The notes below the pieces were generated by a model that did not search any database, had not been told where the DNA came from, and saw nothing but the letters and a program-made list of their open reading frames with translations. Positions 21,471 to 64,000 of a stretch of DNA of 64,000 bases are shown piece by piece; position 1 is the first letter of the stretch, and each line of letters opens with the position of its first letter. The DNA comes from Nitrospirota bacterium (GTDB lineage Bacteria; Nitrospirota; Thermodesulfovibrionia; Thermodesulfovibrionales; Dissulfurispiraceae): contig JBFMCP010000003.1 of the NCBI GenBank assembly GCA_040754455.1, forward strand, positions 65,115-129,114, read 5' to 3'. The position numbers were made by a program, and so were the translations under genes.

Positions 21471-21547
21471 TGGTGGCGGTGCAGGGAATCGAACCCCGGA
21501 CACTGCGAATATGAGTCGCATGCTCTAACCAGCTGAGCTACACCGCC
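21471..21547 (-). tRNA. tRNA-Met (CAT), probably elongator
   Basis: GGCGGTGTAGCTCAGCTGGTTAGAGCA-TGCGA-CTCATAT-TCGCA...GGTTCGATTCC...ACCA cloverleaf, 77 nt. Confidence 0.95.
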
Positions 21548-35619: not shown

Positions 35620-35633
35620 CCTCATCTCTGACC

Positions 35634-35771
35634 TTTGCCCTTCCATATGCCTACGAGGTTAGCTGCCGGGCTCGGGCCTGGAAGTGCCCTATCCCCGAGA
35701 AAACCTCGGGGAATACGCCCCCTTGTCGTGGGTCCCCCGCATCCGCCTCTGGCGGATTTCGGCTGCAAACG
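35634..35771 (-). ncRNA. c-di-AMP (ydaO/yuaA) riboswitch
   Basis: Minus strand GCCGAAATCC..GCGGGGGACCCA..GGGGCGTAT..TAGGG..CCCGAGCCCGGCAGCTAACCTCGTAGGC; upstream of kup. Confidence 0.93.
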
Positions 35772-35784
35772 ACTATTTTGAAGT

Positions 35785-43625: not shown

Positions 43626-43714
<89 letters not shown>

Positions 43715-60785: not shown

Positions 60786-62672
60786 ATGTTTAAAGAGCAA
60801 GACTACGAGGTAATTGTCATTGGCGCCGGCCATGCCGGCTGCGAGGCAGCGCTCGCTGCAGCGCGCCTCGGACTGCACACCTGTCTGTTTACCATCAATA
60901 TCGATACAATTGCGCATCTCTCCTGCAATCCCGCCATCGGCGGGCTCGCAAAGGGACACCTTGTGCGTGAAATCGATGCGCTCGGCGGCGAAATGGCAAA
61001 GGTAAGCGATAAATCGGGAATACAGTTCAGAATGCTCAACCTCTCCAAAGGCCCCGCAGTCTGGTCTTTGAGGGCCCAGGCCGACAGAGGGCTCTACAAG
61101 CTCCATATGAGGCAGGCGCTTGAGCAGCAGAGAGGCCTTACGATAAAGCAGGGGACTGTAGAAAAAATTGCAGTAGAAAACGGCAGGGTCACCGGTGTCC
61201 ATACCTCACTCGGTGTTTTCTATGGCGCAAAGGCAATTGTGGTGACAACCGGCACGTTTCTCAAGGGGCTTATTCACATCGGTCTCGAAAGTTTCCAGGC
61301 CGGGAGAGCGGGAGAATTTCCCTCCATCGGCCTTTCCGAATCATTGAGCTCCCTCGGGTTGAAACTGGGGAGACTCAAGACAGGCACCCCGCCGCGGCTC
61401 GATGCCAGAAGCATCGACTTTTCGAAGACGACTCCCCAGTGGGGAGACGATCCGCCCCCACCTTTTTCCTATTCGACAGAAAAGATCACCAATCCCCAGC
61501 TACCGTGCTACATCACCTATACGAATCAGAAAACCCACGAAATCATTAAAGGGAATCTCGACCGGTCCCCCCTCTACGGAGGGAAGATCAAGGGGGTCGG
61601 TCCGCGTTACTGTCCCTCAATAGAAGACAAGGTCGTGCGGTTCTCGGAAAAAGAGCGGCATCAGGTCTTTCTTGAGCCCGAGGGACTCGCGACTACGGAA
61701 TATTATGCGAACGGTATTTCGACGAGTCTCCCCTATGACGTGCAAATTAAGCTCGTCAGGAGCATCGAGGGACTTGAGCATGCCGAAATTATGAGGCCGG
61801 CGTATGCAATCGAATATGACTTTGTCTATCCGACACAGCTACGCCACAGTCTCGAAGTCAAAGGGATAGAGGGACTCTTCCTCGGAGGCCAGATCAACGG
61901 CACATCCGGCTACGAAGAAGCCGCTGCCCAGGGGTTAATGGCGGGAATCAATGCAGCGCTCAAGATCAAAAATCAGCCGCCGCTTGTCCTGGACCGTGAT
62001 GAGGCGTATATCGGGGTGCTTATTGACGACCTCGTCACCAAAGGCACCAAAGAGCCCTACCGTATGTTCACTTCCCGGGCAGAATACCGTCTGCTCCTCA
62101 GGCACGACAATGCTGACTTCAGACTCAGCGAGAAAGGATATCAGATCGGCCTCGTGACTGAAGAGGCCTTTGAGCGGTTTCATGCAAAGAAGAGCGCTAT
62201 GGAGAAAGAAATTTCCCGTCTCAGAAAGGAGCGGATCAAGCCCTCTGCCGAAATCAACGAAGCACTTACGGCTCTTGGCACCTCTGCGATCACCGAGGAT
62301 ACCGCTCTGGATAAGCTCTTAAAGAGACCGGAGGTCAAATATGCTCTCATCAAGCAATTCTCTTCATCGTCTGACCATTTGTCCGCCGAAGTCGAGTCGC
62401 TTGTCGAGATCAACGTAAAATACGAAGGGTATGTACGGAAGCAGGCGGAGCTCGCCGAGAGATCGAAAAAATTCGAGCACAAGAGGATACCGGCAGCGTT
62501 CAGTTACCAGTCGGTTCCCGGCTTATCGCGGGAGGTCATCGAAAAGCTGAAGGAAGTTGAGCCTGAGACTGTCGGACAGGCGAGCAGGATTCCCGGCATC
62601 ACCCCGGCTGCCATATCAATACTCCTTGTCGCAGTGGAGCGCTATTGGAGACAGTCCAGAAACTCCTCATAG
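60786..62672 (+). CDS. mnmG: tRNA uridine-5-carboxymethylaminomethyl(34) synthesis enzyme MnmG
   Basis: GAGHAGCEAA, SCNPAIGG, RLKTGTPPR, GPRYCPSIEDK, GQINGTSGYEEAAAQG. Confidence 0.99.
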   Translation: MFKEQDYEVIVIGAGHAGCEAALAAARLGLHTCLFTINIDTIAHLSCNPAIGGLAKGHLVREIDALGGEMAKVSDKSGIQFRMLNLSKGPAVWSLRAQADRGLYKLHMRQALEQQRGLTIKQGTVEKIAVENGRVTGVHTSLGVFYGAKAIVVTTGTFLKGLIHIGLESFQAGRAGEFPSIGLSESLSSLGLKLGRLKTGTPPRLDARSIDFSKTTPQWGDDPPPPFSYSTEKITNPQLPCYITYTNQKTHEIIKGNLDRSPLYGGKIKGVGPRYCPSIEDKVVRFSEKERHQVFLEPEGLATTEYYANGISTSLPYDVQIKLVRSIEGLEHAEIMRPAYAIEYDFVYPTQLRHSLEVKGIEGLFLGGQINGTSGYEEAAAQGLMAGINAALKIKNQPPLVLDRDEAYIGVLIDDLVTKGTKEPYRMFTSRAEYRLLLRHDNADFRLSEKGYQIGLVTEEAFERFHAKKSAMEKEISRLRKERIKPSAEINEALTALGTSAITEDTALDKLLKRPEVKYALIKQFSSSSDHLSAEVESLVEINVKYEGYVRKQAELAERSKKFEHKRIPAAFSYQSVPGLSREVIEKLKEVEPETVGQASRIPGITPAAISILLVAVERYWRQSRNSS

Positions 62673-63271
62673 AAGGGCTCCGGGAATTAGGGCTGGAGAC
62701 CTCGGATATCCTTGTTTCCAAGTTTATTACCTACCTGAAGGAACTCAAGAAGTGGAACCGGGCCTATAATCTTACTGCCCTCAAAGAGGACAGAGAGATC
62801 GTCATCAAACATTTCCTGGACTCCCTTCTTTATCTTAAGGCTATTCCGGAAGGAGCGTGGAACATCTGTGATGTCGGCAGCGGCGCTGGCTTTCCCGGTG
62901 TGCCCCTCGCCCTTGTCAGACCGGACCTCAGCTTCACACTTGTAGAGCCCTCCCGAAAGAAGACCGCCTTTCTTAGAAATATAAAACGCGTCCTCTCTCT
63001 TAATAATGTGGACGTGCTCGAAGCAAGAATAGAGGATGTGCGGGAAAAGAAATTCGATATTGCTGTGACGCGGGCTCTCTTCAGCATTGGAGACTTTATT
63101 AAGAATGCCGGACATGCTGTTAAAACGAGAGGCCTTTTCATAATGAATAAAGGGCCGAAGTTCGAAGAAGAAATCAAGGGAGCCCCTGCCTCTACCCACA
63201 TCGAGGTGCTGCAAGCTGCTCTGCCTCAATCCGGGATACAAAGAAGCATAGTGAAAATAGTAAGATCCTAA
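62645..63271 (+). CDS. rsmG: 16S rRNA m7G527 methyltransferase RsmG
   Basis: KWN..YNLT, HFLDSL, DVGSGAGFPG, TRA; follows mnmG. Confidence 0.96.
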   Translation: METVQKLLIEGLRELGLETSDILVSKFITYLKELKKWNRAYNLTALKEDREIVIKHFLDSLLYLKAIPEGAWNICDVGSGAGFPGVPLALVRPDLSFTLVEPSRKKTAFLRNIKRVLSLNNVDVLEARIEDVREKKFDIAVTRALFSIGDFIKNAGHAVKTRGLFIMNKGPKFEEEIKGAPASTHIEVLQAALPQSGIQRSIVKIVRS

Positions 63272-63429
63272 TACAGCGCTAAAGAAGGTCCTCTTTGCCT
63301 TAAATTGCGCATTAAAATATAAGACTTTGATTTTTAATATTTTAAGTGACTACGAATCCGAACCCCTCATAGTGCTCAGCTTGCTTTTTATTTTTATAAG
63401 CCATTGTCTTTTTTTGTAAATTTTACTTG

Positions 63430-63458
63430 TTGACATATCAATAAAGTTTTGCTATTAT
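63430..63458 (+). promoter_or_regulatory. rrn P1-like promoter
   Basis: AT-rich UP region, TTGACA-17nt-TATTAT, boxA-like GCTCTTTGA at 63471. Confidence 0.75.
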
Positions 63459-63577
63459 AACAATTCACTCGCTCTTTGATTTATTTAGTACATAATCCTC
63501 GCACAGGGGAGCTCAAAAGAGCAGGGCTTATCCAGCGGTTCGTTAATTTTTGTTTAATTCCAAAAGATTGCGTCGTG

Positions 63578-63606
63578 TTGACTTGTCTAACCACTTTTGT
63601 TATTAT
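63578..63606 (+). promoter_or_regulatory. rrn P2-like promoter
   Basis: TTGACT-17nt-TATTAT, boxA-like GTTCTTTGA at 63618. Confidence 0.7.
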
Positions 63607-63650
63607 TGATTAAAGGCGTTCTTTGAGTTGTAAACTTGATTTATGTAAAT

Positions 63651-63821
63651 TCTCTGCAGTGCCTGTTGGTTCTAGCGAACTGAGGGAACATCAAGAGAAC
63701 GGGAGTAGGAGTTGATGTGGTGATGCAAGCCCCGGCAAGGCGCGGGGTAGCCTAAACATCAACCGAAGCACCCACTTAGATTGAAGCCTCTGTAAGTTCG
63801 GAATCAACGGCGCTGTGGGGA
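63651..63821 (+). ncRNA. ssrS: 6S RNA (SsrS)-like structure
   Basis: 171-nt rod with a 13-bp terminal stem (including G-U pairs), central bubble, GGGAG (63701), GCACCCAC (63768) and 3' AACGGCGC, as in Bacillus-type 6S RNAs. Confidence 0.72.
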
Positions 63822-63884
63822 TTTTTGTTCTTTGAAAACTAAAGGTAGATTTTGCCAAAGCTTTGTGAGAGTTTTCAGGAAAAG

Positions 63885-64000
63885 ACATTTGAGAGTTTGA
63901 TCCTGGCTCAGAACGAACGCTGGCGGCGTGCTTAACACATGCAAGTCGGACGGAGTTAGACGGCAGCACTCAGCAGTTAGCATTCAGCGATCAGCAAAGA
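63885..64000 (+). rRNA. rrs: 16S rRNA, 5' end (truncated by window)
   Basis: AGAGTTTGATCCTGGCTCAGAACGAACGCTGGCGGCGTGCTTAACACATGCAAGTCG. Confidence 0.98.

Follow-up and report, generated by a model that had tools for sequence, protein, structure and literature searches.

One of the two ribosomal RNA (rrn) operons of a Nitrospirota bacterium carries in its leader, between tandem promoters and the 5' end of the 16S rRNA, a 178-nt rod that covariance-model matches and a covarying fold identify as a homologue of 6S RNA. 6S, the classic example of an RNA that regulates bacterial RNA polymerase, binds and silences the enzyme; in model organisms it has its own gene and accumulates once growth stops. 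The rod described here is a paralogue of the canonical 6S gene found elsewhere in the same genome, and it is in all likelihood carried physically within pre-rRNA, the synthesis of which is what marks fast growth. The RNA is of a known kind; to the extent of our checks, the novelty lies in its placement, in the biogenesis that this placement implies and in the finding that the rrn operons are not equivalent. The production of a 6S-type regulator is probably tied directly to rRNA synthesis in this bacterium.

Layout of the locus and fold of the rod

The features listed in Table 1 were located in a window of 64,000 nucleotides, by which we mean the whole stretch of contig JBFMCP010000003.1 that was analysed. 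The genome to which the window belongs is called G000 below; other G numbers designate relatives and L numbers designate extracted loci. The gap between rod and 16S rRNA measures 59 nt, and the nearer promoter-like site, P2, sits 70 nt ahead of the rod. Extra sequence is seen in the first variable helix of the 16S 5' domain (window 63945-64000), where the Rfam alignment is poor, and the 16S genes of the relative G008 span 1603 nt as compared to a model of 1533 positions. A protein-coding reading of the region, a 92-aa ORF on the minus strand (63691-63969) that overlaps both the rod and the 16S, was rejected as almost certainly spurious.

Table 1. Features of the rod-bearing rrn leader, its upstream context and other RNA elements of the window
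Feature	Position in window	Strand	Evidence
tRNA gene (RF00005)	21474-21547	-	67.7 bits
c-di-AMP riboswitch (RF00379)	35633-35774	-	84.8 bits
tRNA gene (RF00005)	43629-43710	-	51.3 bits
mnmG (gidA), upstream context gene	60786..62672	+	PF01134 GIDA, E = 1.6e-175
rsmG (gidB), 16S rRNA methyltransferase G; final gene ahead of the rrn leader	62645..63271	+	PF02527 GidB, E = 1.3e-49
Promoter-like site P1, TTGACA-17-TATTAT, TG-extended	63430..63458	+	11/12 consensus matches
boxA-like motif 1, GCTCTTTGA, directly after P1	63471..63479	+	motif match
Promoter-like site P2, TTGACT-17-TATTAT, TG-extended	63578..63606	+	10/12 consensus matches
boxA-like motif 2, GTTCTTTGA, between P2 and rod	63618..63626	+	motif match
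6S-type RNA rod (leader-type 6S paralogue), 178 nt	63648..63825	+	RF00013 47.5 bits; model R1 150 bits; MFE z = -4.48; covariation
Closing stem, 5' strand (partner ~63797-63821)	63651..63676	+	MFE structure
Central bubble, 5' strand, GAACAUCAAGAGAAC	63686..63700	+	Rfam alignment and MFE structure
Core in common with canonical 6S	63701..63777	+	consensus comparison, 41 leader-type and 30 canonical sequences
Core: GGGAG	63701-63705	+
Core: inner stem	63711-63718/63756-63763	+
Core: apical GC hairpin		+
Core: GCCUAA		+
Core: CACCCACUU	63769-63777	+
boxA-like motif 3, GTTCTTTGA, abutting the rod 3' end	63827..63835	+	motif match
Ordinary 16S 5' leader, ~50 nt	63836..63884	+	homology with G008
Presumed 5' strand of the 16S processing stalk, GGTAGATTTTGCC	63844-63856	+	homology with G008
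16S rRNA 5' end, cut by the contig end at 64000	63885..64000	+	RF00177 model positions 1-111

The earlier note on this DNA had placed a rod at 63651..63821 ahead of the 16S, and the rod is real, with slightly wider limits. The outer pairing that the note proposed, of TCTCTGCAGTGCC (63651-63663) with GGCGCTGTGGGGA (63809-63821), occurs in the predicted fold with four G-U pairs, as does the inner pairing of GTTGATGT with ACATCAAC (inner stem, Table 1), and the central bubble with its GGGAG-type motifs is likewise present and aligns to the Rfam 6S consensus. The 178-nt stretch folds into a single rod with a minimum free energy (MFE) of -73 kcal/mol, as compared to -54.05 +/- 4.23 for the folds of shuffled rods (z = -4.48), and 0/200 shuffles were as stable as the rod itself.

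Four matches, namely 6S, a c-di-AMP riboswitch and two tRNAs, passed the gathering thresholds when both strands of the whole 64-kb window were searched with the 4227 families of Rfam 15. The 6S identity, for which a search with Rfam RF00013 had been recommended as the check, was borne out by a score of 47.5 bits (curated gathering score 46.4; E = 2.1e-6) over model positions 1-187, which is the full length of the model. The parts of the rod that align to RF00013 are the closing stem, the CuGAgCCgA region (GAGG-GAAC in the rod), GGGAG, the inner stem, the GC-rich apical hairpin, GCCUAA and CACCCAC; the mid-stem aligns poorly. GAGG (63682-63685) pairs with CCUC (63787-63790) directly 5' of the bubble strand, and GAGGGAACA of the bubble falls in the alignment opposite the conserved CuGAgCCgA in the Rfam consensus. 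When RF00013 was scored on 28 rods, all 28 matched at full length (1-187) with 28.3-48.8 bits and no rival Rfam family, although only 6/28 reached the gathering score and the margin of the window copy is 1.1 bits. These matches, together with the covariation described below, establish the rod as a homologue of 6S RNA.

A hairpin in the 3' strand serves as a release switch in 6S. A possible counterpart, (G)AGCC-loop-GGCU(C) at <= -5 kcal/mol, occurs in 26/41 rods with a mean z of only -0.9 and is a candidate only; it was not found in the window copy when the 3' strand was folded alone.

Selection on the structure

To assess the conservation of the fold, 41 distinct rods were aligned with MAFFT, without fitting to any structure (alignment A3). 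The 30 scorable pairs of this alignment, which leave out the middle part of the closing stem, show standard pairing in 96.0% of cells, and when the 3' partner is slid by 1-3 columns the pairing falls to 35.9-47.6%. Double changes occur in 21/30 pairs, as compared to 10.0 +/- 1.5 in shuffles, and 0/500 shuffles reached as high a number; both the closing stem (9/12 scored pairs) and the inner stem (5/5) covary. The GGG/CCC at the flanks of the bubble is invariant in A3, and 31 columns are invariant across the 41 rods and hence, by definition, intact in the window copy; in 33/41 sequences the invariance of three motifs follows from the retrieval pattern described below. Judged by these patterns of substitution, a 6S-type rod with a central bubble is kept under purifying selection.

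The canonical 6S gene of the same genome

The strongest RF00013 match in G000 is not the rod. It lies on another contig (G000:C6:31147-31329) and scores 78.1 bits, between a gene for an ABC-transporter ATPase and rny (RNase Y), directly upstream of the latter. The earlier note had named two circumstances that would together speak against its reading of the rod, namely a genuine 6S gene elsewhere and no 6S match at the rod; the genuine gene is indeed present, yet the rod match is still significant. Since a stronger 6S gene exists elsewhere, the rod is not ssrS moved to a new place but a diverged second paralogue. In the first sample of genomes, consisting of G000 and 40 relatives, a 6S match was obtained in 41/41, and a second, weaker one, often beside a contig end, in 13/41 including G000.

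A tree places 41/41 leader-type sequences apart from 30 canonical 6S sequences of the order, with a support of 1.0. The two consensus sequences have in common GGGAGC, GGTG-tGCA-G-C, CCTAAg and GGCACCCAC, which correspond in the RNA to GGGAG, GGUG-GCA, GCCUAA and CACCCAC; three of these shared motifs were forced by the retrieval pattern in 33/41 rods, but the 8 rods that were retrieved by the Rfam model alone also carry them, and GAGGGA-C-A is invariant among those 8. The consensus of the closing stem is TTCTCTGC...GCGGGGA in the rods versus CCTGCCCTG...CAGGGnGGG in canonical 6S, and that of the 5' bubble strand is CTGAGGGAACA versus TTgATCCngCAAaTTaGAT. The tree and the consensus comparison distinguish the rod from the canonical 6S gene as a separate, conserved paralogue.

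Several other 6S-like elements and features occur in these genomes. A long perfect hairpin follows the canonical 6S gene of G000 (L001 1501-1683). Some canonical-type matches of 230-260 nt occur in other families of the order (L039 1710-1969 in G030; G097:C32:24915-25148; G164:C122:42033-42274), a length that suggests insertions in the canonical rod. The relatives also contain a third class of 6S-like RNAs of ~154-188 nt, which are located away from 16S and have a promoter-like site each (L062 1501-1654; L073 1501-1654; L068 1501-1655, minus strand; L043 1416-1603). In 4/4 of these loci the downstream 250 nt open with (G)GAGCCAUnC, followed later by the matching AUGGCU(C/U)U and then a U-rich tract, and where RF00013 matches them at all it is in the central and apical part only. 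Matches to the rod model R1 (see below) number up to 9 per genome (G106). No element of this third class was found in G000, where a family scan returned only the two known 6S-type loci.

Distribution of the rod and its fixed position before 16S

In seven relatives of the first sample the weaker 6S match shares the strand of the 16S gene and precedes the 5' end of that gene by 37-63 nt. An alignment of these with the window copy (A1), which shows compensatory changes in 17/54 predicted pairs, served to build the covariance model R1, on which the window copy scores 150 bits. Independently of any rRNA sequence, the pattern GAGGGARC-N55-85-CCTAARYA-N8-18-CCCACTT was derived from the core of the rod and found at 42 loci in 185,579 species genomes, 38 of which are followed by a 16S 5' end within 90-204 nt. 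True rods, as judged from a match to R1, account for 39/42 (one of these is cut by a contig end); the 3/42 that fail R1, with the titles Rhizobiales, Anaerobacterium and 'uncultured bacterium', were set aside as chance hits. All 39 true rods come from metagenome-assembled genomes, and 36 are titled Nitrospirota, Nitrospirae, Nitrospiraceae, Nitrospira or Thermodesulfovibrio(-nales, -nia), the remainder being two of 'uncultured bacterium' and one of 'Chloroflexota'.

An even sample of the window's order (151 genomes) contains 50 with a strong R1 match, defined as >=86 bits. Hand comparison with the positions of 16S 5' motifs put at least 35 of the 50 at 44-175 nt before a 16S start on the same strand; 12 had no 16S position among the matches listed, 3 had no assembled 16S 5' end, and none was placed elsewhere. 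Seven weaker R1 matches (57-80 bits) in this sample also adjoin 16S. Rods occur in eight families of the order (f1, f3, f5, f6, f8, f9, f11 and f12), and no leader-type match was found among the genomes searched in 5/13 (f2, f4, f7, f10 and f13). In a phylum sample, 0/124 genomes from families outside the order match R1 at E <= 1e-18.

The earlier note had suggested that the order rsmG-promoter-rod-16S be looked for in relatives. The promoter-rod-16S part of it recurs widely, but rsmG is kept at its head only within the family, where it precedes the rod in 5 distinct relatives (8/52 loci when duplicates are included). The layout of promoter(s), boxA, rod, boxA, 16S stalk and 16S is fixed.

Despite its wide retention, the module can evidently be lost. 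In the sister species G001 an insert of 101 nt with no 6S core occupies an identical leader frame (P1-boxA-P2-boxA-insert-boxA-stalk). The leader of G009 has kept the closing stem and GAGCTGAGG, while everything from GGGAG to CACCCAC is gone; that of G021 has an unrelated insert of 146 nt; and G060 has a shortened rod of 154 nt, 60 nt ahead of 16S. The sequences of these leaders indicate that the rod is dispensable in evolution. In G009 the closing stem has outlasted the core, a hint that some portion of the rod may be of use to pre-rRNA itself.

Two rrn operons and the 16S processing stalk

Whether other rrn copies carry the rod, a question raised in the earlier note, can be answered for three genomes, in each of which (G000, G008 and G020) only one of two leaders does so. 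The second leader of G000, at the end of contig C8 (G000:C8:90085-90330), consists of a promoter, a boxA and ~75 nt to 16S, with no rod, and the visible 5' parts of 16S are identical in both copies. G008 and G020 each have one rod-bearing and one rod-less operon. The 16S-23S spacer of the rod-bearing operons in these two genomes is ~85-95 nt long, and ~94 nt in G008, with no tRNA match, and that of the rod-less operon of G008 contains genes for tRNA-Ile and tRNA-Ala, as read by eye. Among the matches listed (at least ~57 bits), 25 strong-rod genomes of the order sample have two 16S starts with an R1 match at one of them. Judged by leaders and spacers, each of these genomes has a pair of non-equivalent rrn operons.

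The possibility that the rod is the ordinary leader-trailer stalk of 16S was considered in the earlier note and was examined in the complete genome G008, where both strands of the stalk are available; the spacer with the 3' partner is unassembled in G000. The stalk of G008 is formed by the segment that follows the rod. The post-rod leader sequence GGTAGATTCTGTC pairs with GACAGAATCTACC, just 3' of 16S in the 16S-23S spacer, in a duplex of 13 contiguous pairs (-34.9 kcal/mol). The rod of G008 makes only scattered pairs with the spacer (-39.1 kcal/mol over ~190 nt; the window's rod folded on itself reaches about -73) and was accordingly rejected as the stalk.

Promoters, boxA motifs and transcription through the rod

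The tandem rrn-type promoters that had been read at the head of the leader are near-consensus sigma-70-type sites, and the boxA-like motif reported on both sides of the rod is the same GTTCTTTGA in both places, with the third such motif, GCTCTTTGA, farther upstream (Table 1). We take the motif GYTCTTTGA to be boxA, following the literature on rrn antitermination. The window contains 7 boxA-like sites, as compared to 1.36 expected, and 0/100 shuffles reach 7. A regular-expression scan for the first motif after the rod found it to start within 0-2 nt of the rod end in 17/41 leaders.

No promoter-like site was found in the rod-16S interval of the window, and no terminator-like site in positions 63250-64000. 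Only one of the 41 leaders (L084) has a promoter-like site in the rod-16S interval, and the pattern TTGAC(A/T)-16/17-TATnnT occurs <=260 nt upstream of the rod in 38; one of the three leaders that lack it had only 19 nt of upstream sequence. UUUUU (63822-63826) comes directly after the closing stem of the window copy, but the last four columns of A3 vary, so that the U-run is not conserved. As a promoter-like site between rod and 16S is confined to 1/41 leaders, we strongly infer that the rod is co-transcribed with pre-rRNA, and to this extent the earlier note's supposition of a joint transcript stands. Recognisable promoters lie only upstream of the rod and terminators were not found, so each 16S transcript of the operon would begin with the rod; the layout thus argues strongly that the 16S of the rod-bearing operon is transcribed through it.

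A proposed mechanism and its rivals

The reading that we favour, and regard as moderately probable, is that a divergent second member of the 6S family has become established in one rrn leader, is borne on pre-rRNA, is released from it and acts on the polymerase holoenzyme as 6S does, with a supply that tracks the rrn promoters. The rod would make up the 5' part of the pre-rRNA from one operon. The boxA sites on its flanks very probably load the Nus antitermination complex, by virtue of which RNA polymerase would read through the rod structure. RNase III might then cleave the 16S leader-trailer stalk just downstream of the rod and free a 5' fragment, the trimming of which would yield a stable rod of ~180 nt. 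In the manner of 6S, this RNA would mimic an open promoter and occupy the active site of the holoenzyme that contains the housekeeping sigma factor. When nucleotides are plentiful, its release might come about through synthesis of a short product RNA for which the invariant GAGGGAACA would be the template, a role that we assign to this sequence as a guess from its alignment against CuGAgCCgA. The supply of polymerase-sequestering rod would follow rRNA promoter activity one-to-one, and this might amount to an inherent feedback, or to a memory of rRNA synthesis in the recent past, beside the independently transcribed canonical 6S.

The main rival to a released regulator is that the rod acts solely in cis on pre-rRNA and is never a free, trans-acting RNA. 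Close to the rrn promoters it might tether free holoenzyme to the growing transcript; other conceivable tasks are to set the pace of the antitermination complex or to help order the processing of the 5' leader. The boxA motifs on either side of the rod, the second of which abuts it, would fit such a role, as would the confinement of the rod to one type of rrn operon, that with the short spacer of ~90 nt without a tRNA match, and the retention of the closing stem in G009 after the loss of the 6S core. Against it stands the production of the same 16S by the other rrn operon without any rod. In addition, the rod agrees with canonical 6S in the nucleotides conserved at its unpaired sites and beside the bubble, which argues for recognition by polymerase and against a generic scaffold. 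We consider an exclusively cis-acting rod unlikely. A functionless relic, that is, a duplicated 6S gene decaying in a tolerant slot of the rrn leader, could account for the lost core in G001, the truncation in G009, the replacement in G021 and the 154 nt of G060. It is difficult to reconcile with the maintenance of the rod in at least eight families of the order, with compensatory changes in 21/30 pairs and invariant bubble motifs, or with a window copy in which the 31 invariant columns are intact and R1 still returns 150 bits, and we hold it to be improbable.

An independent 6S gene with P2 as its own promoter and with its own 3' end, from which 16S would be transcribed by incidental read-through, is suggested by the position of P2 70 nt upstream of the rod and by the UUUUU after the closing stem. 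The variability of this U-run among the 41 rods and the lack of terminator-like sites in 63250-64000 led us to reject a free-standing sRNA gene with an intrinsic terminator, and in 40/41 leaders there is no other promoter from which 16S could be transcribed; an independent gene is therefore very improbable. Least of all do we expect that the rod resembles 6S by chance or is an ordinary 16S leader-trailer helix, for which there is hardly any room. The Rfam score of the window copy is just 1.1 bits over the threshold, but 28/28 scored homologues match the 6S family at full length, their structure covaries, and the 13 contiguous pairs of the G008 stalk belong to a different segment.

Relationship to known systems

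The rod resembles canonical 6S/SsrS (RF00013) in its length of ~180 nt, in the succession of closing stem, large central bubble and apical stem, in the GGGAG and CACCCAC that flank the inner stem, in the GCCUAA near the apex and in its full-length match to the model. It differs in its score (47.5 bits versus 78.1 for the genome's own canonical copy), in its closing stem, in the 5' bubble strand (GAGGGAACA versus GAUCCNGCAAAUUAGAU) and in having no transcription unit of its own, being situated in the leader of an rRNA operon. The 6S of E. coli is cut by nucleases out of a longer ssrS-ygfA transcript, and the present arrangement is similar in that a longer transcript continues into a downstream gene; here, in contrast, the downstream gene is 16S rRNA and the promoters are of the rrn type with boxA signals. 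Leaders of rrn operons generally contain boxA signals for Nus antitermination and one strand of an RNase III leader-trailer stalk of 16S. The rod-bearing leader conforms to this plan in its tandem strong promoters, its boxA-like GYTCTTTGA and the segment that pairs with the 16S 3' flank, but has an extra 6S-like domain of ~180 nt upstream of the stalk and between two boxA copies, whereas the other leader of G000 is plain. The 3'ETS-leuZ of E. coli, a base-pairing sponge from the trailer of a tRNA operon, offers a further parallel: a by-product of stable-RNA processing acts as a regulator, with a supply that follows stable-RNA transcription, as is proposed for the rod. The rod differs from it as a putative RNA of the polymerase-mimic type in the 5' leader of an rRNA operon.

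Two divergent 6S-type RNAs in one genome are also known from Bacillus subtilis, in which 6S-1 and 6S-2 constitute paired paralogues (PMC8414754, PMC10578484, PMC4793215). A division of labour is plausible where a genome has two such divergent RNAs. The genes for 6S-1 and 6S-2 are both free-standing, unlike the present pair, in which one paralogue belongs to pre-rRNA. The earlier note knew of no account of such an arrangement, in agreement with our own survey for 6S-type RNAs located in rRNA leaders. No published description was found in the full-text literature as represented by listings and abstracts, a coverage outside which the broad surveys of Wehner et al. 2014 and Barrick et al. 2005 fall, and the portions seen of PMC8414754 and PMC11077062 do not mention the arrangement. 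That the lineage is known almost solely from metagenome-assembled genomes may explain why the rod was missed.

Implications for the biology of these bacteria

The placement of the rod implies a new route of biogenesis for a 6S-type RNA, which would arise as a by-product of rRNA processing, and a new regulatory logic, by which the supply of an inhibitor would be proportional to the activity of the rrn promoters. Within the family, natural controls for these proposals are offered by species in which the rod is complete, shortened, decayed or missing. A broader suggestion, to which we would grant slightly less than an even chance, is that the Thermodesulfovibrionales maintain two kinds of rrn operon, one of which makes one polymerase-binding 6S-type RNA per pre-rRNA and thereby meters its own inhibitor or reservoir. 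If true, this would couple ribosome synthesis to global transcription by a hard-wired feedback, for which no description is known from any bacterium.
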